Source: Candidatus Aminicenantales bacterium (GTDB lineage Bacteria; Acidobacteriota; Aminicenantia; Aminicenantales; Saccharicenantaceae). From it: a stretch of 64,000 nt of DNA. Every line of letters begins with the position of its first letter. Position 1 is the first letter of the stretch. The position numbers and the translations under genes are program-made. This document shows positions 29,997 to 47,461 of this stretch, in pieces. The notes beneath the pieces are model-generated. The model ran no database searches and was not told the DNA's origin. It was given only the letters and a program-made list of their open reading frames with translations. The stretch spans positions 132,706-196,705 of the forward strand of contig JBEKXF010000002.1 of the NCBI GenBank assembly GCA_049512315.1. Reading direction: 5' to 3'.

Positions 29997-30005
29997 GGCA
30001 CGAGC

Positions 30006-31481: not shown

Positions 31482-31582
31482 CGCCGTCCGGCCTCGCTTG
31501 CCACCCCGGGGCGATTCCTTTATCATGAACGCAAGATGCGCTGGGCCGAAGCCATCCCCCTTGTCCGGCAAGGAGATCTGAC

Positions 31583-34285
31583 ATGACGCCATTGCCTCCC
31601 GTCAACCTGAAGTGCGAGTCCCTCGCCGGGCCCCTCGGCGTGGACACGCCCAAGCCGAGGTTCTCCTGGCTCCACGTGAGTCCGGAACGTGACGTGAGGC
31701 AGACCGGTTTTTCCATTCTCGTCTCTTCGGCCCCGGAGCTTTGCCGTAAGGAAATCGGCGATTTCTGGGAGAGCGGACCGCTCGAGGGCGAAAGCTCCTT
31801 CAATGTCGAGTACCAGGGCGATCCGCTCCTGAGCTGTACGCGATACTACTGGCGGGTTCGCTGGCGGGACAAGAGCGGCGTCGAGAGTCCGTGGAGCGAA
31901 ATCGCCTCGTTCGTCAGCGGGTTCCTGTACGAGGGCGATTGGAAGGCCCGCTGGATCAGCGCCAGGAATATCCGGGAATTCAAGTCCCGGGGGAACGTCG
32001 TCCTCGGCGAGGCCGGTCCTGAACATGCCCAGGCCTTCGGCATCTACCTCCGGAAGGAATTCGATCTCCGGGAGAAGCCGGTCATGGCCCTGGCCTTCGT
32101 CTCCGGCCTCGGGCATGGCGAGCTCCGGATCAACGGACGGAAGGCCGGGGACAACGTTCTCGACCCTGGCTGGACGGATTACCGGAAAAAGGCTCTTTAT
32201 TCGACTTTCGACGTGACCGGGCTTCTTCAGGAAAAGAACGCCGCGGGGATCGTCCTCGGGAACGGTCGCCACATCAAGTACTTCGGCTACGACGGGCCCC
32301 GGCTGACGTGCCGCATCGAGATCGAAAGCGAGAGCGGCGAGCGAACGGTCGTCCTGTCGGATGAAACGTGGAAGACATCCCACGGCCCCCTCCAGGAGAA
32401 CGGCCTCTATTTCGGCGAAAAATACGACGCCCGCCTCGAAATGCCGGGGTGGGACGAACCGGGCTTCAACGACTCAGGCTGGGAAAAGGCCGTCTTTGTC
32501 CCCGGCACCCCATTGGCCTCCCAACTCATGCCCCCCGTCCGTGTCTGCGGAAAACTCCGGCCGGAGAACGTCTATGCGTCCGCCCCAGGAGTCTGGATCT
32601 TCGATTTCGGCCAGAACTTCTCCGGATGGGTCCGGATGCAGGTCCAGGGCCCCGCGGGGATGGAGGTCCGCCTAAGGCACGCCGAGCTCGTCCACGAGGA
32701 CGGCTCCTTGAACATGGGCCCCACGGAAAACGCAGAGGCCACGGATGTCTACATCTTGAAGGGCGGAGGCCTCGAAACCTACGAGCCCCGTTTCACCTAT
32801 CACGGCTTCCGTTATGTCGAGCTCACCGGCTTTCCCGGTGAACCGTCTTCCGAAACGCTGGAGGGGCGCTTCGTCCATTCGGACGTCGAGACGGCCGGGA
32901 CCTTTTCCTGCTCGAACGAGCTCGTCAACCGGATCCACACCAACGTCCTTTGGGGACAGCTCTCGAACCTCATGAGCATCCCGACCGACTGCCCGCAGAG
33001 GGACGAGCGGCACGGCTGGCTCGGCGACGCCCATCTCTCGGCCGAGGAGGCTGTTTTCAATTTCGACATGTCTGGGTTCTACGCCAAGTTCCTCGAAGAC
33101 ATCAGGCTGGCCCAGAAGGAGGACGGCAGCCTGCCCGACGTGGCTCCGCCCTACCTGCCGAGCCTCTATCCGGCCGACCCGGCCTGGAGCGCGGCCTACG
33201 CGACACTCGCGTGGCTGCATTACGAGCATTACGAAGACGTCAAGGTCCTGGCCCGCCACTACCCCAATCTCAGGAAATACGTCGAATACCTCGGCAAGAA
33301 CGCCAGCGGGCACATCATCAAGAGCCTCGGCAAGTACGGCGACTGGTGCCCCCCGGGCAGCGTCGTGCCCAAGAAGACCCCGGTGGAGCTCACATCGACG
33401 TGGTATTACTACCATGATGTCCTGATCCTCTCCAAGATCGCCCGGGTCCTCTGCCGCGGCGACGAGGCCAAGGAATACAGCAGCCTCGCCGAAAACATCA
33501 GGGACGCTTTCAACGCGGTCTTCCTCGGCGAGGACCAATACGCGGCGATCCGCGTCAGCCGCATCGACAATTATCCGAATCAAACTTCCAATGTCCTGCC
33601 TCTCTATCTGGACATGGTCCCGCCCGCAAAAATAAGCAAGGTCCTAGAGAGCCTTCTGCGCGGCGTCGTCCGTCAGCAGGATGGCCACGTCGACACGGGC
33701 ATCCTGGGCACGCGTTATATCCTGGACGTCCTGACCCGGAACGGCCAGGCGGAAACGGCCTACCGGATGGCCACCCAAAAAAGCTACCCGGGCTGGGGCT
33801 ACATGATCGAGGAAGGCGCCACGACCCTCTGGGAGAGATGGGAAAAATTGACCGGCCCGGGCATGAACTCCCAGAACCACATCATGCTGGGGAGCGTCGA
33901 CGCCTGGTTCTACAGGACGATCGCCGGGCTGACCCTGCTTGAGCCGAGCTGGAAGAAGTTCCAGGTCAAGCCCCATATCCTCGCCGACCTGACGTCCGCC
34001 GAAGCGAGCCTGAAGACCGTCCGCGGTCCCATCCGAGCGGCCTGGAGGAAGGATGATTCGTCCTTCAGCCTCGAGGTCCTCGTCCCCGTTGGGGCGACGG
34101 CCAGAGTCCATATGCCGGAGCTCTATTCGGACGGCAAGGTCACGGAATCAGGAAAGGTCATCTGGACGAGTTCCCGATCCGGCGAAGCGGTTCCCGGGAT
34201 CACCGCGGCCGGGAGGGGGGACAGGCACGCCGTGTTCGAGGTCGGGAGCGGCGCCTACCGGTTCGAGCTGAAGAAAGCGGGCTGA
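31583..34285 (+). CDS. Alpha-L-rhamnosidase, glycoside hydrolase family 78
   Basis: AAGGAG RBS. N-terminal (MTPLPPVNLKCESLAGPLGVDTPKPRFSW) and catalytic (6-hairpin) motifs typical of GH78 (…CPQRDERHGWLGDAH…, …GWGYMIEEGATTLWERW…). 900 aa. Confidence 0.9.
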   Translation: MTPLPPVNLKCESLAGPLGVDTPKPRFSWLHVSPERDVRQTGFSILVSSAPELCRKEIGDFWESGPLEGESSFNVEYQGDPLLSCTRYYWRVRWRDKSGVESPWSEIASFVSGFLYEGDWKARWISARNIREFKSRGNVVLGEAGPEHAQAFGIYLRKEFDLREKPVMALAFVSGLGHGELRINGRKAGDNVLDPGWTDYRKKALYSTFDVTGLLQEKNAAGIVLGNGRHIKYFGYDGPRLTCRIEIESESGERTVVLSDETWKTSHGPLQENGLYFGEKYDARLEMPGWDEPGFNDSGWEKAVFVPGTPLASQLMPPVRVCGKLRPENVYASAPGVWIFDFGQNFSGWVRMQVQGPAGMEVRLRHAELVHEDGSLNMGPTENAEATDVYILKGGGLETYEPRFTYHGFRYVELTGFPGEPSSETLEGRFVHSDVETAGTFSCSNELVNRIHTNVLWGQLSNLMSIPTDCPQRDERHGWLGDAHLSAEEAVFNFDMSGFYAKFLEDIRLAQKEDGSLPDVAPPYLPSLYPADPAWSAAYATLAWLHYEHYEDVKVLARHYPNLRKYVEYLGKNASGHIIKSLGKYGDWCPPGSVVPKKTPVELTSTWYYYHDVLILSKIARVLCRGDEAKEYSSLAENIRDAFNAVFLGEDQYAAIRVSRIDNYPNQTSNVLPLYLDMVPPAKISKVLESLLRGVVRQQDGHVDTGILGTRYILDVLTRNGQAETAYRMATQKSYPGWGYMIEEGATTLWERWEKLTGPGMNSQNHIMLGSVDAWFYRTIAGLTLLEPSWKKFQVKPHILADLTSAEASLKTVRGPIRAAWRKDDSSFSLEVLVPVGATARVHMPELYSDGKVTESGKVIWTSSRSGEAVPGITAAGRGDRHAVFEVGSGAYRFELKKAG

Positions 34286-34339: not shown

Positions 34340-35761
34340 TCAATAAAGGAATTTCTTGAAAAGGCGGGCCGCCTCGCCGTAGGCGTCGACCGTCCGCTCG
34401 ATCTCGGCCTTGCCGTGGGCCGTAGAGACGGCGCCGCCGCCATGGACGACGTTGACGCCGTGGATGAGGAGGGCGAGCTTCAGGATGTCCTCCCTGAGCT
34501 GGACGTTCGACCGCTTCTCATCATGGAGATCTTCCGGACTCTTGAGGACGGCGTTCCCGACCGGAAAATGGACCATGATCATGGAGCTTCCGGCGACGAC
34601 GTCGTTGCCTCCGCCCGTGCAGAGCGCGGGCATACCCTCGGCCGCGAAAACGCGCTCGACCCCCGCCCTGAGCTTCTCGCCCGACCGGGCCAGCCGCGGA
34701 TAGATCGCGTCCGCATCCCGGATCAGGTGACGGAGCATGATCAGGCCGGCCTTCATGTATTCCGAGTGGGCCGAGAACGTCCCGCCGTCGAAGTGGACGC
34801 GGCCCCGGAGGCCCCGGCCGCTCTCGCAGCCCTCCATGATGTCGCGCCGCCCGACGACCGCCGCCACGGCATGCCCGCCGCCGATGATCTTGCCGAAGAC
34901 GGAGATGTCGGGCCGGACGCCGTAAAGGTTCTGGATCCCCGAGGGAGCGAAGCGGAAACCGGAAATGACCTCGTCGAAAACGAGGACGATCCCGTATCTG
35001 GCGGTCAGCTCCCTGGCCAGGGTCAGGTATTCTTTCGAGGCGGGCAGGAAACCGCCGACGCCGAGATAGGGTTCGAGGATGAAACAGGCGATGCGATCGC
35101 CTTTCTCCTTCATGATCCTCTCGAGGTCCGCGCCGTCGTTGAAGCGGGTGATGAGGGTCCGGCGCAGGATGTCTTTGAGGACTCCCGCTGACTCGTCCCC
35201 CTCGAACCCGGAGCCGGGCCGGAATTTGACGCCTTTGAGAAGATAGGGCGAGGCGCCGTGCCAGCCGCCGCCGACCTTCAGGACGAGGTCGCGGCCCGTG
35301 AATCCCTCGGCCAGCATGACCGAGTACATCGTGGCCAGCGTCCCCGAGGTCGTGAAGCGGACCATCTCCCCGCGGTAGCCGAGCTGACGGATGATGAGTT
35401 CGGCCAGCTCGATCTGATGGCCGGCCTCAAAACCGGTGAGGAGCGCGCCCCGCTCAACGCATGCCGCGATCTCGCGGCGGATGAGCCGGGGGTTGTGGCC
35501 CAGAATGTTGGCGTAATGGCCCTGCCAGTAGTCGATGTAGCTCCGGCCGTCCACATCGCGGACGATGGGCCCCTCGGCCCGCGTGGCGAAAAAGGGATAG
35601 GGCCGCCAGAGCCGGATCGTGTGGCTGCCGCCGGCGATCATCACTTTCTCGGCCCGATGGAAGACCGCCCGGCTCTTTTTCGTTCTCTTCTTATACTCCC
35701 GGACCAGGTGGTCCCGGAGCCTGTCCATTCCGCTCATGTGTCCTCTTAGGAGTCCCTTCAT
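34340..35761 (-). CDS. Aminotransferase class III, glutamate-1-semialdehyde 2,1-aminomutase-like
   Basis: PLP class-III fold. The segment …VLVFDEVISGFRFAPSGIQNLYGVRPDISVFGKIIGGG… contains the Schiff-base lysine context (FGKIIGGG) typical of GSA-AM-like enzymes. Confidence 0.85.
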   Translation of the reverse strand: MKGLLRGHMSGMDRLRDHLVREYKKRTKKSRAVFHRAEKVMIAGGSHTIRLWRPYPFFATRAEGPIVRDVDGRSYIDYWQGHYANILGHNPRLIRREIAACVERGALLTGFEAGHQIELAELIIRQLGYRGEMVRFTTSGTLATMYSVMLAEGFTGRDLVLKVGGGWHGASPYLLKGVKFRPGSGFEGDESAGVLKDILRRTLITRFNDGADLERIMKEKGDRIACFILEPYLGVGGFLPASKEYLTLARELTARYGIVLVFDEVISGFRFAPSGIQNLYGVRPDISVFGKIIGGGHAVAAVVGRRDIMEGCESGRGLRGRVHFDGGTFSAHSEYMKAGLIMLRHLIRDADAIYPRLARSGEKLRAGVERVFAAEGMPALCTGGGNDVVAGSSMIMVHFPVGNAVLKSPEDLHDEKRSNVQLREDILKLALLIHGVNVVHGGGAVSTAHGKAEIERTVDAYGEAARLFKKFLY

Positions 35762-35933
35762 TTAACAACCTCGGCGGAGGAATGTCAAATAAGCTCAAGT
35801 GGGGCAGTCCCCTCAAGGGGACTGCCCCACTTTTGTTCGGCGCGTTGATAACCCGCGTCGTTCGGGGTAAAATACTTCGAAGACCGAATACGGAGATTGT
35901 TCATGGACCTGCTCAGCCTGGAAAACGTGTGAC

Positions 35934-37229
35934 ATGCCGATCTTCAAGCTTCGGAAGAAAAAGCGCGTCTGTGTCATCGGCCTCGACGGCGTTCCGCACG
36001 GCATGATCCTCGACTTGGCCGAGAAGGGCGTCATGCCGGCCATGGCCCGGCTGGTCGACGCGGGGCATCTCCACAAAATGAAGGCCAGCCTGCCCGAGAT
36101 CTCGGCGGTCTCCTGGACCGATTTCATGACGGGCCGGGACTCCGGGACCCACGGCATCTTCGGGTTCACGGATTTCAAGCCGGATTCCTACGGGGTCCGT
36201 TACCCCAACTTCCAGGACCTGCGGACCCCGACCATCTGGGACACGCTCGGAGACAAGGGGAAAAAAAGCATCGTCATCAATCAGCCCTCCACGTACCCGG
36301 CGCGGCCCATCAACGGCGTCCTCATCTCCGGCTTCGTGGCCATCGAGCTGGCCAAGGCCGTCTACCCTCCCTCCATCCGGGCCGCTCTCGAGAGGATGGG
36401 TTACGAGGTCGACATCGACATCCTGAGATCGCGCGAGGACCCCGAGGTTCTCATGAGGGAGCTGGCGAGGACCCTGGCCGGCCAGGAGAAGGCCCTGGAT
36501 CTCTTCTGGGGAGAGCCCTGGGACCTCTTCGAGTTCGTCATCACCGGCACCGACAGACTTCACCACTTTCTCTGGACGGCCTACGAAGACAAATCGCATC
36601 CCTTCCACGGGCGCTTCCTGGATTATTATCGCGAGGCCGACAGGCTGATCGGAAAGATCGTCGCATCATTCCGTAAGGCCACGGGGAGCGAGGCCGGCCT
36701 GTTCCTTCTCTCCGACCACGGTTTCACGGGCATCGTTCAGGAGGTTTGCCTCAATGCCTGGCTCGAGCAGAACGGCTACCTGGCGTTCAAGGGGCCCGGA
36801 CCGAAAGGGCTGGAGGACATCACGGCCCCGAGCCGGGCCTTCGCCCTGGACCCCAACCGGATCTACCTGAACCTCAAGGGAAAGTTTCCGGCGGGCAACG
36901 TCGACCCCGGCGAAAGGGAGTCCTTCCGCGCGGAGATCGCCCGCAAGCTCGAAAAGCTCGAGTTCGAAGGCCGGAGGGTCGTCCGGAAAGTCTTTTTGTC
37001 CGAGGAGATCTATTCCGGCCCGCAGGCCGAGAAGGGGCCCGACCTCGTCGTCCTCGGCGAGCCGGGGTACGACATGAAGGGGTCGGTCAAGAAGAAGGAA
37101 GTTTTCAGCCGTTCTGACCTCCAGGGCATGCACACCTGGGACGACGCGTTTTTCTGGGCGGCCGCAGACCATGGCCCGGACCTGGCCATCAAAGATATCG
37201 CCAAGACGATCCTCGGAAGCTACGCATGA
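35934..37229 (+). CDS. Alkaline-phosphatase-superfamily type I phosphodiesterase / nucleotide pyrophosphatase family protein (cytoplasmic paralog)
   Basis: Motifs VCVIGLDGVP, …EISAVSWTDFMTG…, …LLSDHGF…; no signal peptide. Its stop overlaps the next start (ATGA). Confidence 0.8.
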   Translation: MPIFKLRKKKRVCVIGLDGVPHGMILDLAEKGVMPAMARLVDAGHLHKMKASLPEISAVSWTDFMTGRDSGTHGIFGFTDFKPDSYGVRYPNFQDLRTPTIWDTLGDKGKKSIVINQPSTYPARPINGVLISGFVAIELAKAVYPPSIRAALERMGYEVDIDILRSREDPEVLMRELARTLAGQEKALDLFWGEPWDLFEFVITGTDRLHHFLWTAYEDKSHPFHGRFLDYYREADRLIGKIVASFRKATGSEAGLFLLSDHGFTGIVQEVCLNAWLEQNGYLAFKGPGPKGLEDITAPSRAFALDPNRIYLNLKGKFPAGNVDPGERESFRAEIARKLEKLEFEGRRVVRKVFLSEEIYSGPQAEKGPDLVVLGEPGYDMKGSVKKKEVFSRSDLQGMHTWDDAFFWAAADHGPDLAIKDIAKTILGSYA

Positions 37230-39376
37230 GAAACGGGCGGCGAACGGCGGGACCCCTCATCGGCCTCATCGCCGTCTTCGCCCTCTCCCTTTCGGCCCCG
37301 CTCGAAGCTTACGTCGGGCCCGGCGCGGGTTTCGCTTTCCTCTCCTCTTTCTTCGTCCTCTTCCTGACTTTTTTCATGGCCGTGTTTTCGTTCCTGGCCT
37401 GGCCCTTCCGCTTCCTGTGGCGCGTCGTGCGCGGTCAGAGGGCTTATAAAGACAGCAAGATCAACAGGATGGTCATCCTCGGGCTGGACGGCATGGAGCC
37501 CACCCTGGCTGAAAAATTCATGGCCGAAGGGAAGCTCCCGAACCTGGCCCGGCTCAAGAAGGACGGGACCTACGCCCGGCTGAGGACGACGACGCCGGCC
37601 ATCTCGCCCGTGGCCTGGTCGTCGTTCATGACCGGGTCCGAGCCCTCCAAGCACAACATCTTCGACTTCCTGAGCCGCGACCCTCGGACCTACCTGCCCG
37701 ACCTTTCTTCGGCCCGGGTCGGCAAGCCCCGGCGCGTTCTCTCCCTCGGGAAATACAACATCCCGCTCGCCAAGCCCGAGATCCGCGGGCTCAGGAAAAG
37801 CGTCCCGTTCTGGAAGATCCTGGGCGACAAGGGCATTTTCAGCACCGTTCTCAGGGTCCCGATCACCTTCCCGCCGGAAAAGTTCAGGGGCCACCTTCTC
37901 TCCGGGATGTGCACTCCCGATATGAAGGGCAGCCAGGGGACGTTCTCGTTCTACACCACGGACGGGGAAAAGGTCCGGAAACACGAGGGCGGGGTCGCGA
38001 TCCCCGTCGAGATCGAGGGGAACAGGATCCGGACGCATCTTTCCGGTCCGGAAAACACGATGCTCAAGACTCCCACGGAGATCCGTCTGCCGCTGACCCT
38101 GACTCTCGACAGGGCCAAAGGCGGGGCCTGGATCGAAGTCGCCGGCGAAGAAAAATTCTTTCTCAAGGAAAAAACGTTCAGCCCCTGGGTCCCGGCCGTC
38201 TTCCGGCCCGGATTGGGGATCAAGGTCCGGTCCATCTGCCGGTTCTTCATCTCCGGGCTCGAGCCGCACTTCGAGATGTACGTGACGCCCCTCAACATCG
38301 ACCCCGAGAAGCCGGCCCTGCCGATCTCGCATCCCTTCATCTACTCGATTTATCTGGCCAGGCTCCTGGGACGCTTCATCACCCTGGGCGAGGCCAACGA
38401 CACCTGGGCCCTGAACGAGGGAATCCTCGGCGAGCAGCCCTTCCTCGACCTCACCTACTCCAACCACGCCGAGTGGGAAGCCATGCTCTCGAACGCCCTC
38501 GAAAAGACGCCCCGTGGGCTCGTGACCATCGTCTTCGAGACGACCGACAGCATCCAGCACATGTTCTTCCGCTATCTCGACAAGAGCCACCCGGCCCTCA
38601 AGAAGCCCGGCCAGAACGGGCTCGGCGCCCGGGTCATCGAGGACCTCTATGTCAGGATGGACGACCTCGTCGGGCGCGTCCGGAAATCCCTGGACGAGCG
38701 GAGCGTGCTCGTCATCATGTCAGACCACGGCTTCAAGTCCTTCCGGCGCGGGGTCAACCTCAACTCCTGGCTCCTCAAGAACGGCTACCTGCGTCTCAAG
38801 GACGGGAAGGCGGAGAGCGGCGAGTGGTTCAGGGACGTCGATTGGGAGAAAACTAGGGCCTATGCTCTCGGGCTCGGCGGGCTCTACCTCAACGTCCGCG
38901 GGCGGGAAGCCAAAGGGACCGTCGGCCCGGGCGGAGAAGCGAAGCGCCTCAAGGCCGAGCTCCTCCAGAAGCTCAAGGGCCTGAAAGACACGGCGACGGG
39001 GGCCATCGCCATCACGAATGTTTATGACACGGACGCGGTTTATTCGGGACCCTACAAGGACAACGCCCCGGACCTCATCATCGGCTACAACGAAGGCTTC
39101 CGGGCTTCGTGGGAAGGCGTCACGGGCATCGTCAACGACACGATCTTCGACGACAACGACAAGGCCTGGAGCGGTGACCACTGCATCGACCCGGCCCTCG
39201 TCCCCGGCGTCCTCTTCTCAAACCTCAAGCTCAAGGGCCAGAATCCGTCGATCATGGACATCGCCCCGACGGCCCTCGAGCTCTTCGGGCTCCGGCCGCC
39301 GGCCCACATGGACGGCCGCAGCTTGGTCGACGCCGCGAACCCGTTCGGAACGTCCGCAGGGGAAAAACCATCATGA
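37226..39376 (+). CDS. Alkaline-phosphatase-superfamily type I phosphodiesterase family protein (membrane-anchored paralog)
   Basis: Two N-terminal hydrophobic helices, then MVILGLDGMEP, …PAISPVAWSSFMTG…, …IMSDHGF…, …WSGDHC…; 716 aa. Overlaps both neighbours by 4 nt. Confidence 0.8.
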   Translation: MRNGRRTAGPLIGLIAVFALSLSAPLEAYVGPGAGFAFLSSFFVLFLTFFMAVFSFLAWPFRFLWRVVRGQRAYKDSKINRMVILGLDGMEPTLAEKFMAEGKLPNLARLKKDGTYARLRTTTPAISPVAWSSFMTGSEPSKHNIFDFLSRDPRTYLPDLSSARVGKPRRVLSLGKYNIPLAKPEIRGLRKSVPFWKILGDKGIFSTVLRVPITFPPEKFRGHLLSGMCTPDMKGSQGTFSFYTTDGEKVRKHEGGVAIPVEIEGNRIRTHLSGPENTMLKTPTEIRLPLTLTLDRAKGGAWIEVAGEEKFFLKEKTFSPWVPAVFRPGLGIKVRSICRFFISGLEPHFEMYVTPLNIDPEKPALPISHPFIYSIYLARLLGRFITLGEANDTWALNEGILGEQPFLDLTYSNHAEWEAMLSNALEKTPRGLVTIVFETTDSIQHMFFRYLDKSHPALKKPGQNGLGARVIEDLYVRMDDLVGRVRKSLDERSVLVIMSDHGFKSFRRGVNLNSWLLKNGYLRLKDGKAESGEWFRDVDWEKTRAYALGLGGLYLNVRGREAKGTVGPGGEAKRLKAELLQKLKGLKDTATGAIAITNVYDTDAVYSGPYKDNAPDLIIGYNEGFRASWEGVTGIVNDTIFDDNDKAWSGDHCIDPALVPGVLFSNLKLKGQNPSIMDIAPTALELFGLRPPAHMDGRSLVDAANPFGTSAGEKPS

Positions 39377-41394
39377 GCCGTCAAAGAAAACCGTCCACGC
39401 TGAGCCGCAGGGAATTCATGAAAGTGGGCGCGGCGGCCTCCGCCGCCCTGACGATCGGCGGCGGCAAAAACATCGTTCCCAAGATCTTCGGAAAAGCCCG
39501 GGCGACGAAAAAGGTCATCGTCATCGGGATGGACGGCCTGGATCACGGCCTGGTCAAGGGCTGGATAGAGGCCGGGAAGCTGCCGACCTTCGATAAGGTG
39601 CTCCGCGGGGGCGGCGATCTCCGGCCGCTCCGGTCGAGCATCCCGCCCCAGACCCCCGTGGCCTGGTCGAATTTCATCACCGGCACGGACCCGGGCGGCC
39701 ACGGCATTTTCGATTTCATCCGGCGCGACCCCCACAACCTCGACCCTTCGCACTTTCTCAATTTTTCCGCGACGGAAACCTCTTCCGCCAAGCACACGCT
39801 CCGGATCGGTCAGACCATCTTTCCCCTTTCGGGGGGCGAAGTCAGGAACCTTCGCCACGGAAAGGCCTTCTGGCAGGACCTTGAGGAGAACGGCATTCCC
39901 TCCACAGTCATCCGGATGCCTTCCAACTACCCGCCCGTCGCGACCCGCCAACGGACCCTCTCGGGCATGAACACTCCGGACCTCAAGGGAACCTACGGCA
40001 TCTTCAACTATTACACGAACGAAGCCAAGCAGATCACGGAAGAGGCGGGCGGCGGCGGCCGCGTCCACGACGTTTTTGTCGTCGGCAACCGGGTCGAGGC
40101 CAAACTGCCGGGCCCGGCGAACAGCTTCCGGGCCGGCAACCCCGAGACCGAGGTCGACTTCAAGGTGTTCGTCGACCCCGTCAACTCGGCGGCCAAGATC
40201 ATCATCCAGGACCAGCAGTTCATCCTCAAGGAAAAGGAATGGAGCGGCTGGAAGAGGGTCCGGTTCCACTTCCTGCCGACGCAGAGTGTCGGTGGGATCT
40301 GCCAATTCTATCTCAAGGAGATCCGGCCAAAGTTCAAGCTTTATATCAGCCCCATCCACATCGACCCCGCCGACCCGGCCCTGCCCATTTCCACTCCCGA
40401 CTCCTATGCCAGGGAGCTCGCCCGGCGCTTCGGCCCATTCTTCACCAAGGGCCTCCCCGCCGATACGGCCGCATTGGACAACGATGTCCTCGATGAGGCC
40501 GAATTCCTGACCCAGGACGACATGGTCCTTCGGGAGAGCATGGAACAGCTCGAGTTCGAGCTCGGGCGATTCGACGAAGGGCTCTTTTTCTATTACTTCT
40601 CGAGCACGGACCAGCGTCAGCACATGTTCTGGCGGCTCATCGATCCGGGCCACCCCGGCTACGACGCGAAGCTGGCCGGGAAATACGGCACGGCTATCGA
40701 GGAGATCTACAGCGAAATGGACAGGGTACTGGACAGGGTCCTCAGAAAGGTCGACCAGGATACCCTCCTCCTCGTCATGTCCGACCACGGCTTCAACCCC
40801 TTCCGCCGGGGCTTCAACCTCAACACTTGGCTGTATCAAAGCGGGTATCACCGCCTGATCAAGCCGTGGAAACAGGAAGAAACGCTCCTTTTCGACAACA
40901 CGGACTGGGCCAAGACTGCAGCCTTCGGGGCCGGGCTCAACGGCCTGTACATCAACGAGAAGGGCCGCGAGCGGGAAGGGATCGTCGCCGCTGGACCCGA
41001 AAAAGAGAACCTCGTCCAGGAGATCGCCCGGAAGCTCGAGGCACTGACCGACCCGAAGACGGGGGAACAGGCCATCCTCCATGCGTACGTCGCCAAGGAC
41101 GTCTACCATGGCCCCTATGTCGAGTTGGCCCCGGACATCGTCCTCGGTTTCAACCGCGGTTTCCGGATCTCCTGGCAGTCTCCCCTGGGGGGCTTCCCCA
41201 AGGACGTGTTCGCGGACAACTTCAAGAAGTGGAGCGGCGACCACATGACTTCCCCGGACGTCATCCCGGGCATCGTCGTGGCCAACCGGGCCATCCGGGC
41301 CGGGGAACCGGCGCTCTTCGACTTGACCGCGGCCATCCTCGACGTTTTCGGCATCGGGAAACCCAAGGAGATGATTGGAACGACCATTTTTTAA
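39373..41394 (+). CDS. Alkaline-phosphatase-superfamily type I phosphodiesterase family protein (TAT-exported paralog)
   Basis: Twin-arginine leader (MSRQRKPSTLSRREFMKVGAAASAALTIGGG), then VIVIGMDGLDHG, …PPQTPVAWSNFITG…, …VMSDHGF…, …WSGDHM… 673 aa. Confidence 0.8.
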   Translation: MSRQRKPSTLSRREFMKVGAAASAALTIGGGKNIVPKIFGKARATKKVIVIGMDGLDHGLVKGWIEAGKLPTFDKVLRGGGDLRPLRSSIPPQTPVAWSNFITGTDPGGHGIFDFIRRDPHNLDPSHFLNFSATETSSAKHTLRIGQTIFPLSGGEVRNLRHGKAFWQDLEENGIPSTVIRMPSNYPPVATRQRTLSGMNTPDLKGTYGIFNYYTNEAKQITEEAGGGGRVHDVFVVGNRVEAKLPGPANSFRAGNPETEVDFKVFVDPVNSAAKIIIQDQQFILKEKEWSGWKRVRFHFLPTQSVGGICQFYLKEIRPKFKLYISPIHIDPADPALPISTPDSYARELARRFGPFFTKGLPADTAALDNDVLDEAEFLTQDDMVLRESMEQLEFELGRFDEGLFFYYFSSTDQRQHMFWRLIDPGHPGYDAKLAGKYGTAIEEIYSEMDRVLDRVLRKVDQDTLLLVMSDHGFNPFRRGFNLNTWLYQSGYHRLIKPWKQEETLLFDNTDWAKTAAFGAGLNGLYINEKGREREGIVAAGPEKENLVQEIARKLEALTDPKTGEQAILHAYVAKDVYHGPYVELAPDIVLGFNRGFRISWQSPLGGFPKDVFADNFKKWSGDHMTSPDVIPGIVVANRAIRAGEPALFDLTAAILDVFGIGKPKEMIGTTIF

Positions 41395-41407
41395 AAGGAG
41401 CAACGCC

Positions 41408-41599
41408 ATGGGAAGCGCGAAGATTAAGATCGACAAGGACCTCCACGCAAAGATCAAGAAATACGCGGAGATAGCCGGCTATTCTTCGCCCGACGAATTC
41501 ATCACCCACTGCCTGGAAAAGGAGATCGCCAAGATCGAAGAGGCCGACTCGGAAGAGGAGATCAAGAAGAAGCTCAAAGGGCTGGGCTACATTTCCTGA
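41408..41599 (+). CDS. Small hypothetical protein (63 aa), possible ribbon-helix-helix-like / antitoxin-like fold
   Basis: AGGAG RBS 8 nt before ATG 41408. Sequence MGSAKIKIDKDLHAKIKKYAEIAGYSSPDEFITHCLEKEIAKIEEADSEEEIKKKLKGLGYIS. Sits between the third PDE paralog and the membrane protein with 13- and 5-nt gaps. Confidence 0.5.
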   Translation: MGSAKIKIDKDLHAKIKKYAEIAGYSSPDEFITHCLEKEIAKIEEADSEEEIKKKLKGLGYIS

Positions 41600-41604
41600 G
41601 GGCC

Positions 41605-42432
41605 ATGGGGATCGTCAATTTCGTCTTCGGCGGGATCTTCGACGTCCTGCTCTATCCCTTCCGGGGCCTGTCCCCTTGGTTCGGGATGATTTTCGTTTCC
41701 CTGGTGACCGCCTTTCTGATGCTTTGGGTCTTCAAACTGACGTCGGACCAGGAGGGCATCCGGAAGTCCAAAAACGCCATCAAGGCCCACCTCATGGAAC
41801 TTCGTCTCTTCAAGGACAACATGCGGATCTCGCTCCAGGCCCAGGGCCGGATCCTCCGGGCGAACATGCGCTACATCGCCTGCAATTCCAGACCCATGCT
41901 GATCATGTTCATTCCGCTCCTCCTCATCCTGGCGCAGCTCAACCTCTGGTTCGGCGCCGCGCCGCTCAAGCCTGGCGAAGAGACACTGGTCAAGCTCGGT
42001 CTCGCCCGGGGCACGGACCCGCTGGCCCTGGACGTGGCGATCGAGCCCTCGCCGGGACTCTCCGTCGAGTCGCCCGCCGTCCGGATCCCCGACGAACACG
42101 AGATCGCCTGGCGGATCAGGGCGACCGGACGGGGGCCGGCCAGCCTGACTTTTCGCGTGGCCGGGCGGACCCTGACAAAGCCGCTGGCCGTGGCCGGCCC
42201 GCGTCTGTCGAAGATCTCGACCCTGACGGTCGGATCGTCGCTCCTGAAGCAGGTCCTGTATCCCGGAGAGAAATCGCTTCCGGGCGACACGCCGGTGACA
42301 TCGATCGAAGTCCTTTATCCTGGAAGGAGCCTGGGCTTTTTCGGCCTATCCGTCCACTGGCTGGTGGCTTATTTCGCCCTTTCCATCATTTTCGGGTTCG
42401 CCTTCAAGGGCGTCTTCAAGGTCGAGATCTAA
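41605..42432 (+). CDS. Hypothetical integral membrane protein
   Basis: 275 aa with hydrophobic helices at the N-terminus (FVFGGIFDVLLYPF…MIFVSLVTAFLMLWVF), the middle, and the C-terminus (LSVHWLVAYFALSIIFGFAF). Confidence 0.6.
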   Translation: MGIVNFVFGGIFDVLLYPFRGLSPWFGMIFVSLVTAFLMLWVFKLTSDQEGIRKSKNAIKAHLMELRLFKDNMRISLQAQGRILRANMRYIACNSRPMLIMFIPLLLILAQLNLWFGAAPLKPGEETLVKLGLARGTDPLALDVAIEPSPGLSVESPAVRIPDEHEIAWRIRATGRGPASLTFRVAGRTLTKPLAVAGPRLSKISTLTVGSSLLKQVLYPGEKSLPGDTPVTSIEVLYPGRSLGFFGLSVHWLVAYFALSIIFGFAFKGVFKVEI

Positions 42433-42497
42433 GGGGGAAGCCGCCCGGGGAAAGGGTCCGCAAGTTCGGGGTCTTCAGGAGCGTATCGAAGAAATAC

Positions 42498-42552
42498 TTA
42501 AAAAAATCCGCCAATCGTGGTAAAATCTCTAATCCATTCCCTTATGGGAATG
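42498..42552 (+). promoter_or_regulatory. Putative promoter plus 5'UTR inverted repeat upstream of skp
   Basis: TTAAAA (42498-503), 17-nt spacer, TAAAAT (42521-26); then a perfect inverted repeat CATTCCC-ttat-GGGAATG (42535-42552) before the RBS AGGAGG. Confidence 0.35.
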
Positions 42553-42586
42553 AGAGTGACATCTGCAGAACCCATAGGAGGTTGTT

Positions 42587-43278: not shown

Positions 43279-44436
43279 TCACGACCTTGAGGTTTTGAAG
43301 GTCAGCCGGATGCGGACGATCTCGGGGACGCTCCCCGTCCTTACCGGCGGACCCCATGTCCCGACGCCGCAGGAGACATAATAATGGGTCTTTCCCTTCA
43401 CCAGGGATCCCCAGTTCTGCTCATAGATGAGCCGGTTGATGAGATTGAGCGGGAAAAGCTGCCCGGCGTGGGTATGTCCTGAAAGCTGGAGGTCGATCCC
43501 CGCCCGCTCGGCCTGTTCGAGGTGGATGGGCTGGTGGTCGAGGAGGATGAGGGGCCGGCTCGGGTCGACGCCACCGGCCGTCATGATCTCCTCGATCGGC
43601 CTCCGGGCCTCACCGCGACGCAGGGCCGTCGGGTCCTTGCGCCCGATGACATAAAAAGACCCGTCCACCTTGACCGCTTCATCCTCGAGGACCCTCACGC
43701 CCCATTTTCGGAGGTAGGCGAGGTTCCGCTCCAGACCGCCGTAATATTCGTGGTTCCCGGGAACGGAAAAAACCCCCAGGGGCGCAGTGATCCTTTGGAA
43801 GACCGCCGTCATCTCCTCCTCTTCCCGCGACGTGACGCTCTCGTCAACGATGTCTCCCGGCAGAAGGACGATGTCCGGGGCGAGGGCGTTGATCCGGTCG
43901 GCGAGCATCCTCAGCCGCGAACTGCCCGCGATCGTCCCGAGGTGGACGTCCGAGGCCACGACGATGGAGAGACTCGTCCGGCCTCCGGCGGACTTATCGA
44001 TGGGGATCACGAGCTCCTTCAGCCGGGGCCGGGCGGCGTTGACGGCTCCGCCGGCGATGACGAGGAGCGAAACCCCCGCGACGAAAACGAAGGCCGCGAG
44101 CCCCGTCTGGTGCGGCCGGGCCGAGAAAGACTTCGGGAAGATCGGGAGGATGCCGTTGGCCAGCCGAAAAAGATCGATCAGGACGACACCCAAAAAAAGA
44201 TAGAGCATCAGGGCCAGGTGGAACGACCCGATCTTGACAAATATCCCGGACAGGGAATTCCGGCCGAAGCCCATGGCGATCCTCGCAGCCGGATAGGCGA
44301 TAACGGAGGCCAGGAAAACCGCGAGAAACACCCACCGGGAACGAGGATACCCGGCCAGAGCCTGGTAGCCGCGCCGGATGATGTAAAAATTGACCAGGCC
44401 GTAGATGGACAGGGCGACCACTAGAAAAATTGGCAT
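43279..44436 (-). CDS. Membrane-anchored metallophosphoesterase (calcineurin-like, YkuE-like)
   Basis: About 5 N-terminal TM helices, then MPE motifs (…IVVASDVHLG…, …LLPGDIVDE…, …VPGNHEYY…, …LSGHTHAGQ). The start is probably ATG 44436 (MPIFLVV…). Confidence 0.8.
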   Translation of the reverse strand: MPIFLVVALSIYGLVNFYIIRRGYQALAGYPRSRWVFLAVFLASVIAYPAARIAMGFGRNSLSGIFVKIGSFHLALMLYLFLGVVLIDLFRLANGILPIFPKSFSARPHQTGLAAFVFVAGVSLLVIAGGAVNAARPRLKELVIPIDKSAGGRTSLSIVVASDVHLGTIAGSSRLRMLADRINALAPDIVLLPGDIVDESVTSREEEEMTAVFQRITAPLGVFSVPGNHEYYGGLERNLAYLRKWGVRVLEDEAVKVDGSFYVIGRKDPTALRRGEARRPIEEIMTAGGVDPSRPLILLDHQPIHLEQAERAGIDLQLSGHTHAGQLFPLNLINRLIYEQNWGSLVKGKTHYYVSCGVGTWGPPVRTGSVPEIVRIRLTFKTSRS

Positions 44437-44447
44437 CCCCGGGCTCC

Positions 44448-45044
44448 TCACTTTTCCGTCGCCGGCTCGCTCCCGCATTCTCTATCCTCTCCGCTTTTTC
44501 CGATGCTGTTCCACCAGGCCACCTCGTCGAGGGCCTTCCTCGCGGTCTCCCGCGGCGGCCTCGAGGCGGCGTAGCCGACGGGCAACAGGGCGACGATTTT
44601 GTAGCTCCGCGGGACCTTGAGAGCCTTACGGACCCGCCGGCCGTTGAACCAGCCGATCCAGCAGGTCCCCAAGCCAAGCTCTTCGGCCTGAAGGATGAAA
44701 TGCTCGCCGGAGATGCCGATGTCGATGAGGTGGAATTGGACGCCCTGGATCTGGCGTCCGAGCCAGTGGGTCACGAGGCTGGGCCGGGCCAGGATGACGA
44801 CCAGGACCGGGGCCTGGGCCGCGAACCGGCACATCGAATAGACCCCCAAAAAGGCCTCGCGGCAGAGGCCTTCTTTAAGGCCGGGATCGTCGACGACGAT
44901 GAACCTCCAGGGCTGGGCGTTCTGCGCCGATGGAGCCAGACGCGCGGCTTCGAGACAGGCCATGATCTTCTCCCGTTCGACGGGCCGGGGAAGAAAACGC
45001 CGGATGCTTCTCCGGCTCCGGACGAGATCGATGAAAGTCGGCAT
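44448..45044 (-). CDS. Nitroreductase family protein (FMN-dependent)
   Basis: GGAGGA RBS. Motifs …RRSIRRFLPRPV… and …APSAQNAQPWRFIVV… typical of the NfsB/NfnB-like fold. 198 aa. Confidence 0.85.
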   Translation of the reverse strand: MPTFIDLVRSRRSIRRFLPRPVEREKIMACLEAARLAPSAQNAQPWRFIVVDDPGLKEGLCREAFLGVYSMCRFAAQAPVLVVILARPSLVTHWLGRQIQGVQFHLIDIGISGEHFILQAEELGLGTCWIGWFNGRRVRKALKVPRSYKIVALLPVGYAASRPPRETARKALDEVAWWNSIGKSGEDRECGSEPATEK

Positions 45045-45055
45045 GCGTTCCTCCC

Positions 45056-45217
45056 CTATTTGATCAGCGGGAATTCTCCCCCGCCCTTCGCCTCTCCCCC
45101 GTCATCATAGACGAGCATGATCATGCGGCGGGCCGAGAGGCTGTTCCAGGGATTGAGCGAGTGGTGGACCTCGCCCTCGTTGTATTCCTTGCAGATGACG
45201 AGCCACATATCGGTCAT
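45056..45217 (-). CDS. Small ORF (53 aa) absent from the track, leading the nitroreductase operon
   Basis: ATG at 45217 (minus) to TAG at 45056-58. Peptide MTDMWLVICKEYNEGEVHHSLNPWNSLSARRMIMLVYDDGGEAKGGGEFPLIK. Strong G/C third-position bias like neighbouring genes. Ends 11 nt before the nitroreductase RBS. Confidence 0.4.
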   Translation of the reverse strand: MTDMWLVICKEYNEGEVHHSLNPWNSLSARRMIMLVYDDGGEAKGGGEFPLIK

Positions 45218-45291
45218 ATCTCGCGGCCCGCGCGGCCGAAGTCCATATTTTTATACCAAAAGATCGCCCCGCGCAATAATCTTCCCTCTCT

Positions 45292-45412
45292 GCACTCGGC
45301 TGCTTCCTGGCCCAAGGACGCAGCCGAGTGCTCCGACTAGGGGGGAACCGCTCCTTGGATCCCCCAGTGCTCTCGCGCAATCCCCTTCCGCCTTGGGCGG
45401 GCGGGGATTGGC
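45292..45412. promoter_or_regulatory. Cluster of GC-rich inverted repeats in a divergent intergenic region
   Basis: Perfect 12-bp inverted repeat GCACTCGGCTGC (45292-303) / GCAGCCGAGTGC (45320-331) with a 16-nt spacer; a GGGGG…CCCCC stem (about 45340-45367); and a nested CAATCCCC (45378-85) / GGGGATTG (45403-10) stem enclosing a cgcc-ttgg-gcgg mini-hairpin. No T-tracts follow, so these are not terminators. Confidence 0.4.
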
Positions 45413-45523
45413 ACCGGGCCACCCATCATGGCTCGCTTTTTAATAATAAAAGTTTCGGTTAAGGCGGAGCTAAGGATTGCGTCGGAAGGCGTTTTTTTGT
45501 ATAGTCCAACTCAGGAACTTTCA

Positions 45524-45548
45524 ATAGGATATTCCGTATATCCTATTA
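45524..45548 (+). promoter_or_regulatory. AT-rich perfect palindrome (operator-like) immediately upstream of the lipoprotein gene RBS
   Basis: AATAGGATAT-tccgt-ATATCCTATT, 10-bp arms, ending 2 nt before the AAGGAGG RBS (45551-57); ATG at 45566. Lies in a 140-bp AT-rich island in a 65% GC genome. Confidence 0.45.
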
Positions 45549-45565
45549 ACAAGGAGGTTTGCACC

Positions 45566-46618
45566 ATGAAAAATCACCTCAGGATCGTATTGGCCATCCT
45601 CATCGCCGCAGGCCTTGTCTCCTGCGTCGAGCAGGGCGGGCTCAAGGCCGGCGCGGCCACCGGGAAGTCCATGCTCCAGCTCATCCCCGCAAACTGCCGC
45701 GCCGTCTTCATGATCGACGTCCACCGGGCCCTGACCACGGACGCCGCGGCGAAGGCCCTCAAGGACGGGAAGATGAAGCAGAAATACGACGACTTCGTCA
45801 AGATGGCCGGCCTCGACCCGATGAAGGACGTCTACTATCTGGCGGTCGGCGTGACCAGAGCCCCGGCGGCGACGGACCGGGAAGGGGCCATTGTCCTCAA
45901 CCTGAGGTATCAGAAGGAACAGCTCCTCGCCAAGCTGAAGGAAGCCGCGAAAAACCTTCGGGAGGAGACCTACAACGGCCTCACCATTTATACGAGCCTC
46001 GACGCCGCCAAGCCCGGAAAAATGGCTCCGGCGGGGGCCTTCCTGGATGATTCGAACATCGTCATCGGAAATGATAAGACCGTCCGGGCCGTTATCGACG
46101 TTTTCCAGAAGAAAGCGGATTCGGTCCTCAAAAACGCCGAGATGGGAAAGGTCCTCAAGGCCGTCAACACCTCCGCCGTGGTCTGGGGCGCCATCATCGT
46201 TCCTTCGGACATGATCAAGAAGGCCGCCGAGCAGAATCCGATGCTCAAGCCGCTCGAGGGCGTGACGGGTCTGGCGATGTCCTTCGACTACGTGAACATG
46301 AGCCTCATCGCCGAGGTCCAGAGCCTGGGCGGGACGAAGGAGCAGAACAAGCAGTTGGCCGATACCCTGAACGGGTTGAAGGCCATGGGCTCCGCCGCCG
46401 CCTCAAAAGAACCCGTCCTTTTGGACCTTCTGAACACCCTTGAGATCACTTCGGGAGCCGACCACGTGAAGCTCTACGCCGCCGTCCGGTCCGAGCTCCT
46501 GGAAAAGGTTCAGAAGATGGCCCAGGAAAAGCTCGGCGGCATGGTCTCCTTCGGCACGCCGTCGCCGAAGGAAGAGAAGAAAGAAGAAAAGAAAGCAGAA
46601 CCCGGGATCAAGAAATAA
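45566..46618 (+). CDS. Hypothetical lipoprotein with Lys/Glu-rich C-terminal tail
   Basis: Lipobox LVSC after the signal peptide (MKNHLRIVLAILIAAGLVSCVEQ). 350 aa. Low-complexity tail PKEEKKEEKKAEPGIKK. No family recognised. Confidence 0.7.
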   Translation: MKNHLRIVLAILIAAGLVSCVEQGGLKAGAATGKSMLQLIPANCRAVFMIDVHRALTTDAAAKALKDGKMKQKYDDFVKMAGLDPMKDVYYLAVGVTRAPAATDREGAIVLNLRYQKEQLLAKLKEAAKNLREETYNGLTIYTSLDAAKPGKMAPAGAFLDDSNIVIGNDKTVRAVIDVFQKKADSVLKNAEMGKVLKAVNTSAVVWGAIIVPSDMIKKAAEQNPMLKPLEGVTGLAMSFDYVNMSLIAEVQSLGGTKEQNKQLADTLNGLKAMGSAAASKEPVLLDLLNTLEITSGADHVKLYAAVRSELLEKVQKMAQEKLGGMVSFGTPSPKEEKKEEKKAEPGIKK

Positions 46619-46653
46619 ACCCCGCAGACGATCCCGCGGGAGAGGCCTGCGGC

Positions 46654-47460: not shown

Positions 47461-47461
47461 C

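Follow-up and report, generated by a model that had tools for sequence, protein, structure and literature searches.

A conserved bacterial gene module that joins phosphodiesterase-type enzymes to a DUF106/Ylp1-type membrane protein

The Five-Gene Locus

This report concerns five adjacent genes, here called P1 to P5, that lie in a 64,000-nucleotide stretch of DNA from a Candidatus Aminicenantales bacterium (GenBank assembly GCA_049512315.1, contig JBEKXF010000002.1, positions 132,706 to 196,705; hereafter the window, whose guanine plus cytosine content is about 62%). The first three encode enzymes of the NPP type within the alkaline phosphatase (AP) superfamily, and they are followed by the gene of a small protein and by that of a membrane protein (Table 1). 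The five open reading frames described in a first-pass annotation of the same DNA were all recovered on the + strand, between 35934 and 42432.

Reading of both junctions confirmed that the enzyme genes are joined by 4-nt ATGA overlaps, at 37226-37229 (P1/P2) and 39373-39376 (P2/P3), and the gaps on the two sides of the small gene were likewise confirmed to measure 13 nt (P3-P4, where an AAGGAG Shine-Dalgarno sequence is found 8 nt upstream of P4) and 5 nt (P4-P5). A putative promoter precedes P1, and at its position TTGAC and TAtAAT blocks are kept among 55 aligned upstream regions from Aminicenantes. A second promoter-like site (42498-42526) stands ahead of the next gene, which encodes an OmpH/Skp homologue. 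Because of the overlaps, the short gaps, the promoter before P1 and the separate promoter-like site before the OmpH gene, the five genes look like one co-transcribed unit, in which P1/P2 and P2/P3 are probably translationally coupled. The first-pass annotation had gone on to stoichiometric co-expression, a claim that is drawn from overlapping start and stop codons only; the overlaps themselves do exist.

Table 1. Genes and features of the five-gene unit, in window coordinates.
Feature	Position (nt)	Strand	Description
Putative sigma-70-like promoter	35845..35873	+	TTGATA-17-TAAAAT; would serve the five-gene unit; consensus match 10/12 positions
P1	35934-37229	+	431 aa; predicted soluble, signal-less NPP-type AP-superfamily enzyme
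P2	37226-39376	+	716 aa; membrane-anchored (predicted) long NPP-type enzyme
P2 N-terminal anchor	37247..37402	+	signal-peptide-like helix aa 8-28, motif aa 28-38, transmembrane helix aa 36-59
Beta-rich insertion domain in AP core	37943..38284	+	P2 aa ~240-353; from AlphaFold2 secondary structure, split PF01663 matches and pairwise alignments
P3	39373-41394	+	673 aa; exported (predicted) long NPP-type enzyme
Twin-arginine motif SRREFMK of P3	39403..39423	+	TIGR01409, 18.2 bits vs cut-off 16.7
P4	41408-41599	+	63 aa; probable ribbon-helix-helix N-terminal part and GLGY tail
P4 tail L-x-GLGY-[ILM]-x	41573-41596	+	L56, G58, L59, G60 and Y61 in 77/77 sequences
P5	41605-42432	+	275 aa; DUF106/Ylp1-type Oxa1-superfamily membrane protein (profile evidence)
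P5 TM1, basic coiled coil and TM2	41674-41952	+	aa 24-116; AlphaFold2 model
P5 Ig-like beta-sandwich	41962-42354	+	aa ~120-250; predicted periplasmic; AlphaFold2 model, Foldseek
P5 TM3	42358-42405	+	aa 252-267; AlphaFold2 model

Conservation and Variants of the Module

A genome scan with a P5 alignment returned 216 relatives, of which the best 80, nearly all from Aminicenantes, were analyzed. The order P1-P2-P3-P4-P5 is present in 61 of the 64 Aminicenantes loci that include enough upstream DNA, down to a P5 identity of 47%, and the same gene set occurs in Latescibacteria (locus L084) and in the metagenome contigs L088 and L211. The arrangement is thus deeply conserved, in this class and in other phyla, and is not a local duplication only.

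P4 was then used as a marker in a metagenome scan, with a degenerate DNA pattern that excludes the Aminicenantes Cys35 codon; at least 120 loci were obtained, and 115 of the 121 pattern matches listed are genuine P4 sequences ending in GLGY. Among the matches listed, P5 lies within 400 nt of P4 in 49 of the 53 metagenomic P4 loci with flanks of at least 1 kb on both sides, and slightly further away in three more; the commonest order there is P2-P3-P4-P5, and the variants include P3-P4-P5-P2, P2-P3-P5-P4(-P4') and modules with a single enzyme, of one topology or the other. P4 and P5 persist even where the sole enzyme is a lipoprotein of the P3 type or is one of the P2 type, and the minimal module of locus L086 consists of one Tat-lipoprotein enzyme, a 64-aa protein and a P5-like protein. 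Exact-sequence look-ups placed P4 variants in Terriglobales, Nannocystales/Myxococcota and Planctomycetota.

The cross-phylum core is, in short, one or two long enzymes plus P4 and P5. P1 is missing from most modules outside Aminicenantes, a different soluble sulfatase-family enzyme occupies its position in six other loci, and P1 is a lineage-specific accessory of Aminicenantes and Latescibacteria-like lineages.

Some individual loci depart from these patterns. A 2.4-Mb Aminicenantes contig (JBGLNH010000001.1; L002/L020, 4240-5643) has no P1, and an opposite-strand gene of the MacB/FtsX type abuts its P2; the assembly of L003, which has an identical P5, does have P1, so that the former may represent a rearrangement or an assembly chimera. 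Tandem P4 paralogues follow P5 (P2-P3-P5-P4-P4') at L123:8149-8571 and also in L152, L163, L151, L162 and L179, and of the two copies in L123 the second ends in a degenerate tail, GIGYIDAGLDI. On a contig from a Spartobacteria metagenome-assembled genome (RZZM01000231.1; L087:1-1280) a P5-like protein comes after a reading frame with a C-type-lectin domain, and no P4 or AP enzyme is found in the 6 kb downstream; the contig begins there, and this may be an exception to the linkage. An apparent fusion of P5 to an aminotransferase in L042 proved to be an artefact of a masked run of N.

The Membrane Protein P5

P5 is the most unusual component of the unit. It had been annotated in the first pass as a polytopic membrane protein, and a membrane protein it is; what was missed is its DUF106/Ylp1-type identity, which emerges from the family rather than from the single sequence. 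A profile made from 20 diverse family members matches PDB entry 5C8J (M. jannaschii MJ0480/Ylp1) with E=5.8e-9 over positions 10-119, with an additional weak match at the last transmembrane (TM) helix, TM3, and it retrieves no YidC chain from the PDB even at E<=10. The window protein, which is 100% identical to NCBI protein ABSG73_01825, reaches PF01956 (EMC3/TMCO1, DUF106) with E=0.0075 and 16.5 bits, below the gathering score of 27.1. Four of the 20 family members match PF01956 alone (best 1.3e-5) and none matches the YidC models, and many relatives are labelled 'DUF106 family' by JGI. The family is large: the profile search yielded 2,793 representatives (50%-identity clusters) at E<=1e-3, 890 of them at E<=1e-30, and nearly all of the 150 matches listed are about 275 aa long.

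In the AlphaFold2 (AF2) model of P5 (predicted local distance difference test, pLDDT, 85) an amphipathic helix at the N-terminus comes first, then TM1, a coiled coil and TM2, and a beta-sandwich of about 130 residues separates TM2 from TM3; there are helices at residues 24-46, 49-68 plus 73-116, and 252-267. On average the coiled coil carries a net charge of +6.7, which is consistent with a cytoplasmic position, the topology being deduced from charge bias only. A Foldseek search of the PDB with the whole model returned immunoglobulin (Ig)-like domains only, for example that of SbsC, with E of about 1e-3 or weaker; these matches were rejected as an identity for the core of P5, as they describe the inserted domain only. 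This Ig-like domain is conserved and contains the invariant residues E166, W169 and R170.

Proteins of the Oxa1 superfamily have in common an N-out architecture, a coiled coil on the cytosolic side and a three-TM groove (PMC5868721). The order TM1, cytosolic basic coiled coil, TM2, TM3 is common to P5 and to archaeal Ylp1/MJ0480 (DUF106, PF01956), EMC3, TMCO1 and Get1, and with Ylp1/MJ0480 it also shares D/N-Q, N and P motifs and an interfacial Trp before TM3. P5 differs from all these proteins in being bacterial, in bearing an Ig-like insert of about 130 aa in the extracytoplasmic TM2-TM3 loop, and in being encoded in an operon with enzymes and not as a housekeeping gene. YidC belongs to the same superfamily, but P5 has three TM helices instead of five or six and matches neither the families nor the structures of YidC. 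On the profile evidence, P5 is a DUF106/Ylp1-type protein of the Oxa1 superfamily with an Ig-like domain inserted between TM2 and TM3. DUF106 has been treated as an archaeal and eukaryotic family (PMC5868721, PMC8887752, PMC8675477), and no published account of a bacterial one was found in the literature searched.

The Three Enzymes

All three enzymes match PF01663 far above its gathering score of 23 (P1, E=2e-40, 139.9 bits; P2, 5.5e-34, 118.7 bits; P3, 1.3e-29, 104.3 bits), and match PF00884 (Sulfatase) with E=0.014-0.078 only, which bears out the earlier view that they share one family. The match of P1 spans profile positions 1-342, and that of P2 is interrupted by an insert. In pairwise alignments P2 and P3 are 38% identical over 634 aa, and P1 is about 30% identical to either of them in two blocks, since it lacks an insert of about 250 aa; the beta-rich insertion domain is common to P2 and P3 and missing in P1. 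With identities of only 30-38%, the three proteins are, by this measure, old paralogues and not the outcome of a recent duplication.

The two-metal site (Asp, Asp-His, Asp...His, His) and the Ser/Thr nucleophile are complete in each protein. Among orthologues extracted from more than 80 related loci, the corresponding residues are invariant in 59/59 sequences for P1 (D18, S57, D207, H211, D261, H262, H400) and in 61/61 for P2 (D88, S127, D441, H445, D500, H501, H652), and conserved in 71-72 of 72 for P3 (D54, T94, which is Ser or Thr in the orthologues, D413, H417, D471, H472, H624). As to which of the paralogues retain their catalytic residues, a point raised in the first pass, all seven ligand and nucleophile positions are kept in every one, and all three enzymes are probably catalytically competent and active. 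The family motifs quoted at that stage are present in general, except that P1 reads LSDHGF and GMH instead of MSDHGF and WSGDH.

By sequence, phosphonoacetate hydrolases are the only relatives of solved structure that can be detected: S57 of P1 aligns with the Thr64 nucleophile of 3SZY/3T02, and its GTDRLHH segment with TDYVQH. An identity as phosphonoacetate hydrolase was rejected, as an E-value of about 1e-5, set against an NCBIfam cut-off of 407 bits, indicates a superfamily resemblance only. The AF2 model of P2 (pLDDT 77) points to the AP alpha/beta fold; its Foldseek neighbors are PafA, NPP1, Xac NPP, PhnA, ENPP4-7 and autotaxin, with E-values from 4e-8 to 1e-5 and identities of 10-13%, and against Xac NPP and PhnA it gives a target-normalized TM-score of 0.55 with a probability of 1.0. 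Family P2 is labelled by JGI as 'predicted AlkP superfamily phosphohydrolase/phosphomutase' only, and literature searches on COG3379 and on 'AlkP superfamily' or 'phosphomutase' returned nothing relevant; P1-P3 belong to an uncharacterized subfamily. With the NPP branch as a whole (Xac NPP, ENPP1-7, PafA, PhnA) they share PF01663, the AP fold, the two-metal set and the Ser/Thr nucleophile, and they are set apart from it by the beta-rich insertion of P2 and P3, by the unique Y[IV]GPGAGFAF anchor of P2 and by their obligate linkage to P4 and P5.

Location of the Enzymes Relative to the Membrane

The N-termini differ systematically, as the first-pass annotation had noticed: P1 has no signal sequence, P2 has two hydrophobic helices and P3 has a twin-arginine motif, SRREFMK, that scores above the TIGR01409 cut-off. 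The A-Y-[IV]-GPGAGFAF motif of P2 is found in 61/61 Aminicenantes orthologues and is kept across phyla; in the cross-phylum set the residue before the motif Tyr is Ala in 91 of 97 sequences and Gly in the other 6, the spacing from this Tyr to GxDG is fixed at 54-59 aa, and the 22 residues after the TM helix contain at least three Lys/Arg (mean 6.4). In P2 itself, the TM helix is directly followed by the basic stretch RFLWRVVRGQRAYKDSK, and the first catalytic beta-strand begins about 20 residues past the helix. Under the positive-inside rule, this basic stretch leads to the prediction that the catalytic domain of P2 is on the cytoplasmic face. The first helix may be cleaved at A/L-x-A↓Y, in which case a 7-residue external stub would remain, and one P2-type variant begins directly with MAYIGPGAG, without a signal helix. 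M13 procoat and Pf3 coat are the classic Sec-independent substrates of YidC, and we take the N-terminus of P2, with its short translocated loop, TM helix and basic cytoplasmic flank, to be laid out like theirs.

In P3, the Tat motif is accompanied by a mildly hydrophobic h-region (SRREFMKVGAAASAALTIGGG); PF10518 scores 21 bits, just below its cut-off of 22.7, and RR-x-F is present in 70/72 orthologues. The P3 of the window has no clear AxA site and no lipobox. Among other phyla, P3-type paralogues are frequently lipoproteins, with the lipobox Cys 10-14 aa before the first beta-strand, and some have Sec-type signals. We infer that P3 is exported by the twin-arginine translocation (Tat) system and that P1 is cytosolic. 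The first-pass annotation had distributed the enzymes over three compartments; with the P2 domain predicted to be cytoplasmic, this gives way to a layout of cytosol, inner face and periplasm, in which the long enzymes would be kept close against the cytoplasmic membrane, on its inner and on its outer face.

An AP-fold domain held at the membrane surface is also what EptA/MCR-1, LtaS and OpgB have (PF00884, with a multi-TM N-terminus), and proteins of that architecture recur beside the module in other phyla. A covalent Thr/Ser-phosphoryl intermediate on lipid head groups may be counted as a further likeness, one that is only proposed for the module enzymes. P1-P3, by contrast, belong to PF01663 and have no 5-TM domain, and P2 has a single hairpin or anchor and is predicted to face the cytoplasm. 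The identification of the enzymes as LtaS/EptA-type transferases was accordingly rejected, given PF00884 E-values that go no lower than 0.014 (range 0.014-0.078), the lack of about five TM helices in P2 and its predicted cytoplasmic domain.

The Small Protein P4

No gene of the unit is more strongly conserved than P4, whose median identity among Aminicenantes loci is 79%. Three regions can be distinguished in it, a part that resembles ribbon-helix-helix (RHH) proteins (residues 1-44), an acidic linker and the C-terminal tail, and E30, H34, E37 and E39 are invariant across phyla. The best PDB matches of the family profile are all NikR RHH domains, and they are weak (E=0.075-0.16); 7 of 24 family members match PF01402 (best 3e-4), and JGI labels some members 'CopG/Arc/MetJ transcriptional regulator'. 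The window P4 alone has no Pfam match at E<=0.1, and in NCBIfam its matches to VapB and NikR are weak, with E of about 0.03 (VapB, 0.026). P4 is probably an RHH protein of the cytoplasm. Its first 44 residues can be aligned to the RHH domain of NikR, the G-Y-x-S-x-x-E signature included, and it resembles the RHH antitoxins in being small and having a C-terminal extension. It differs from NikR in that the match is statistically weak and the metal-binding C-terminal domain is absent, and the GLGY tail and the E30/H34/E37/E39 helix face, both invariant, are without a described counterpart.

The tail motif, searched for as L-x-[GAS]-LGY-[ILVM], occurs nowhere else in the window. A segment N-x-W-L-x-x-x-G-Y lies just after SDHGF in all three enzymes (NAWLEQNGYL at aa 274-283 of P1, NSWLLKNGYL at aa 513-522 of P2 and NTWLYQSGYH at aa 484-493 of P3) and is loosely like the P4 tail KLKGLGYI (aa 55-62), which might reflect mimicry of the enzyme segment or coincidence. 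An operator was sought in a crude alignment of the 55 regions upstream of P1; only the -35/-10 promoter hexamers are conserved there, and no repeat or palindrome was seen.

Neighboring Genes

In other phyla, sulfation genes recur among the neighbors of the module. A sulfotransferase gene comes directly after P5 in five loci (L094, L107, L161, L180, L193), 285 nt after P5 in L192 and before P2 in L125, and a gene for adenosine 5'-phosphosulfate (APS) kinase lies beside the module in L106, L158, L131, L084 and L211; in L211 ATP sulfurylase and a fourth gene of PF01663 stand with APS kinase in the same operon. CysQ-like genes of the inositol-monophosphatase family are found near the module in 3 loci outside Aminicenantes, and sulfatase-family proteins with multi-TM N-termini in 8. 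A PstS-like gene (PBP_like_2) is near the minimal module of L086. The same-strand genes ahead of the module in the Latescibacteria-like contigs L211:1-4588 and L084:1-4231 comprise the fourth PF01663 protein (459 aa) and APS kinase, with ATP sulfurylase in L211 only; in L084, reading frames for Fer4 and for a fragment of NiFeSe-hydrogenase intervene as well.

In most Aminicenantes relatives, P5 is followed within about 25 nt by a class I/II aminotransferase (370-374 aa, NPNNPTG type), which was compared in L001:10853-11965, L003, L209 and L210 and is sometimes succeeded by a gene of the ornithine-cyclodeaminase family. The window has between P5 and OmpH only a 154-nt gap (42433-42586) without this gene, so its lineage lost the aminotransferase or never had it.

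Upstream of P1, on the opposite strand, lies a class-III aminotransferase gene (34340-35761). In the divergent intergenic region between the two, a perfect GC-rich hairpin of 16 bp (AAGTGGGGCAGTCCCC-TTGA-GGGGACTGCCCCACTT) lies at 35797-35838, upstream of the P1 promoter, and is followed by a TTTTGTT run on the + strand; it is terminator-like, yet the + strand offers no gene that it could terminate, and it is missing from most of the aligned orthologous upstream regions. A block at 35760-35789 (- strand), TTTAAC-N15-CA-AAGTCAA(C), is common to most Aminicenantes loci and reads on the - strand as TTGACA-18-TTAAAT, where TTAAAT and the ATG annotated for the class-III aminotransferase overlap. It may be the promoter of that gene, and if so the aminotransferase transcript would be leaderless or the true start codon would lie further downstream. 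Further neighbors (28140-34285 and 43279-48556) are genes for HEAT-repeat, HD-domain and DUF3352 proteins, for an alpha-L-rhamnosidase of family GH78, for a calcineurin-like phosphoesterase and for an ABC-2 transporter pair, and the synteny rhamnosidase/aminotransferase/module/OmpH is maintained in many Aminicenantes genomes.

Proposed Role of the Module

The coordinated, envelope-associated, two-sided system envisaged in the first-pass annotation remains the best reading of the locus. We propose, tentatively and as a possibility with a real chance of being wrong, that the proteins form a membrane complex that acts, at both faces of the membrane, on lipid-linked substrates of the envelope with phosphodiester, possibly sulfo-ester, bonds. 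The procoat-like anchor of P2 would keep this enzyme at the inner face of the membrane of the cytoplasm, and P3 would be exported by Tat or, elsewhere, lipid-anchored on a tether of 10-14 residues, so that the same active site would be set against both leaflets. P5 would be the membrane hub, and its putative groove-bearing three-TM core could insert and assemble the enzyme anchors, or else thin the bilayer and scramble lipid; among insertases of the Oxa1 superfamily, glycerophospholipid scrambling has been demonstrated with YidC and Get1 and seen in simulations of EMC3 and TMCO1 (PMC11047089). The periplasmic Ig-like domain of P5 might dock the outer enzyme or the N-terminal stub of P2, and its basic coiled coil might dock the acidic linker and GLGY tail of a dimeric P4, which would act, bound via this tail, as a cytoplasmic adaptor or regulator.

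The substrate would most likely be a phosphodiester-linked lipid or lipid-linked envelope component, possibly sulfated in some lineages, that is cut or transferred on both sides of the membrane via a covalent Ser/Thr-phosphoryl intermediate. ENPP6, ENPP7 and autotaxin are members of the NPP family that act on lipid head groups, and their presence among the structural neighbors of the P2 model supports a substrate of this kind. A sulfated or envelope substrate in some lineages is suggested by the sulfotransferase, sulfate-activation and sulfatase-family genes that neighbor the module outside Aminicenantes.

Several points weigh against this proposal. Physical contact between P2, P3, P4 and P5 is conjectural, and the sequence points to no particular substrate, the closest solved structures being 10-13% identical. 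The homology of P5 rests on the family profile, the window protein being below threshold for PF01956, and its groove is putative. The topology of P2 and the cleavage of its signal peptide rest on the positive-inside rule and a small residue at -1 only, the RHH assignment of P4 is weak (E of about 0.1), and a purely regulatory role for P4 would also fit the gene order. In addition, a tblastn search found no sulfation genes in the window or in 83 Aminicenantes loci, where the recurrent neighbors are aminotransferases.

A bolder form of the proposal is a long shot: bacteria of several phyla would have a branch of their own of the archaeal/eukaryotic DUF106 (Ylp1/EMC3/TMCO1-like) insertases, which would serve not as a general insertase but as the hub of a dedicated machine across the membrane, with an RHH-fold dimer docked by its GLGY tail and with NPP-type enzymes on both leaflets coupled to the flipping, by way of the groove, of a lipid-linked envelope precursor that bears phosphodiester or sulfate.

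Alternative Explanations

The alternative that fares best, unlikely as we consider it, takes P5 for a dedicated YidC-like insertase and P4 for a cytosolic targeting or holding factor, the enzymes being ordinary scavenging phosphodiesterases or phosphatases that form no stable complex. It has in its favor the N-terminus of P2, a hairpin whose translocated loop is very short and which has a site of the A-x-A kind, together with the MAYIGPGAG variant; the signal helix, 7-residue loop and TM helix resemble M13 procoat and Pf3 coat, and the PstS-like gene near the minimal module of L086, as well as the PafA-type phosphatases among the structural neighbors of the P2 model, would suit a scavenging function. 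Members of the Oxa1 superfamily do insert such simple substrates (PMC5868721). However, modules without P2, in which a lipoprotein P3-type enzyme is the only one, retain both P4 and P5; P4 has no hydrophobic-binding character; and bacteria already have a housekeeping YidC, so that the near-obligate linkage and the invariant E166, W169 and R170 suggest a specific and lasting partnership.

It is more doubtful still that the unit owes P4 and P5 to regulation, with P4 as an RHH repressor of the operon and P5 as a membrane sensor that sequesters it by the GLGY tail when the Ig-like domain perceives a cue in the periplasm; the DUF106-like core would then be a membrane scaffold only. Such a role would agree with the NikR matches, in which K5 and K7 of P4 align with the beta-strand residues T5 and T7 of NikR, with the PF01402 matches in 7 of 24 members and the regulator label given by JGI, and with a basic N-terminal part and a tail like the partner-binding extensions of antitoxins; it is also compatible with modules whose enzymes are on either side of the membrane. 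What speaks against it is that the 55 aligned upstream regions show no conserved palindrome or operator around the -35/-10 blocks, that P4 is always beside P5 and never at the head of the operon, and that P4 is the most conserved protein, with E30, H34, E37 and E39 invariant across phyla, which would be unusual for a lineage-specific reader of an operator.

The idea of a toxin-antitoxin or anti-phage pair, in which an RHH antitoxin (P4) and a membrane toxin (P5) would be hitch-hiking by the enzymes, can draw on the antitoxin-like build of P4 (RHH plus a C-terminal tail), its 5-nt gap to P5 and the weak VapB match (E=0.026), and is nonetheless very improbable: none of the five proteins has a match in PADLOC, the homology of P5 is to insertases and not to known toxins, and the P4-P5 pair is single-copy, in stable chromosomal synteny across 80 genomes and the whole class, and always beside AP enzymes. 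That there is no system at all, merely three enzymes from a recent local duplication next to two unrelated small genes, is contradicted by the conservation data and scarcely credible, since, common as tandem paralogues are and even with one Pfam family for all three, these are only 30-38% identical and the order is kept in 61/64 Aminicenantes loci, with P5 identities down to 47%, and in other phyla.

Significance of the Module

Each component of the unit belongs to a known superfamily, and it is the combination of genes, and the bacterial DUF106-type family with an inserted periplasmic domain, that appear to be undescribed in the literature searched. The module is conserved, widespread and entirely uncharacterized, and it is spread over Acidobacteriota (Aminicenantes and Terriglobales), Latescibacteria, Myxococcota and Planctomycetota, phyla that are environmentally dominant but poorly studied. 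In some lineages, its linkage to sulfotransferases and to the synthesis of 3'-phosphoadenosine 5'-phosphosulfate points to an unexplored pathway of envelope sulfation or phospho-modification, and an assembly of enzymes with a scramblase, if true, would be without a described counterpart. DUF106/Ylp1-type proteins have, on this evidence, a large bacterial family with fixed operon partners. These partners are candidate clients or co-factors, of a kind that is lacking for the housekeeping insertases, and bacterial P5 would thus offer a genetically tractable way into the role of this branch, be it insertion, scrambling or scaffolding.

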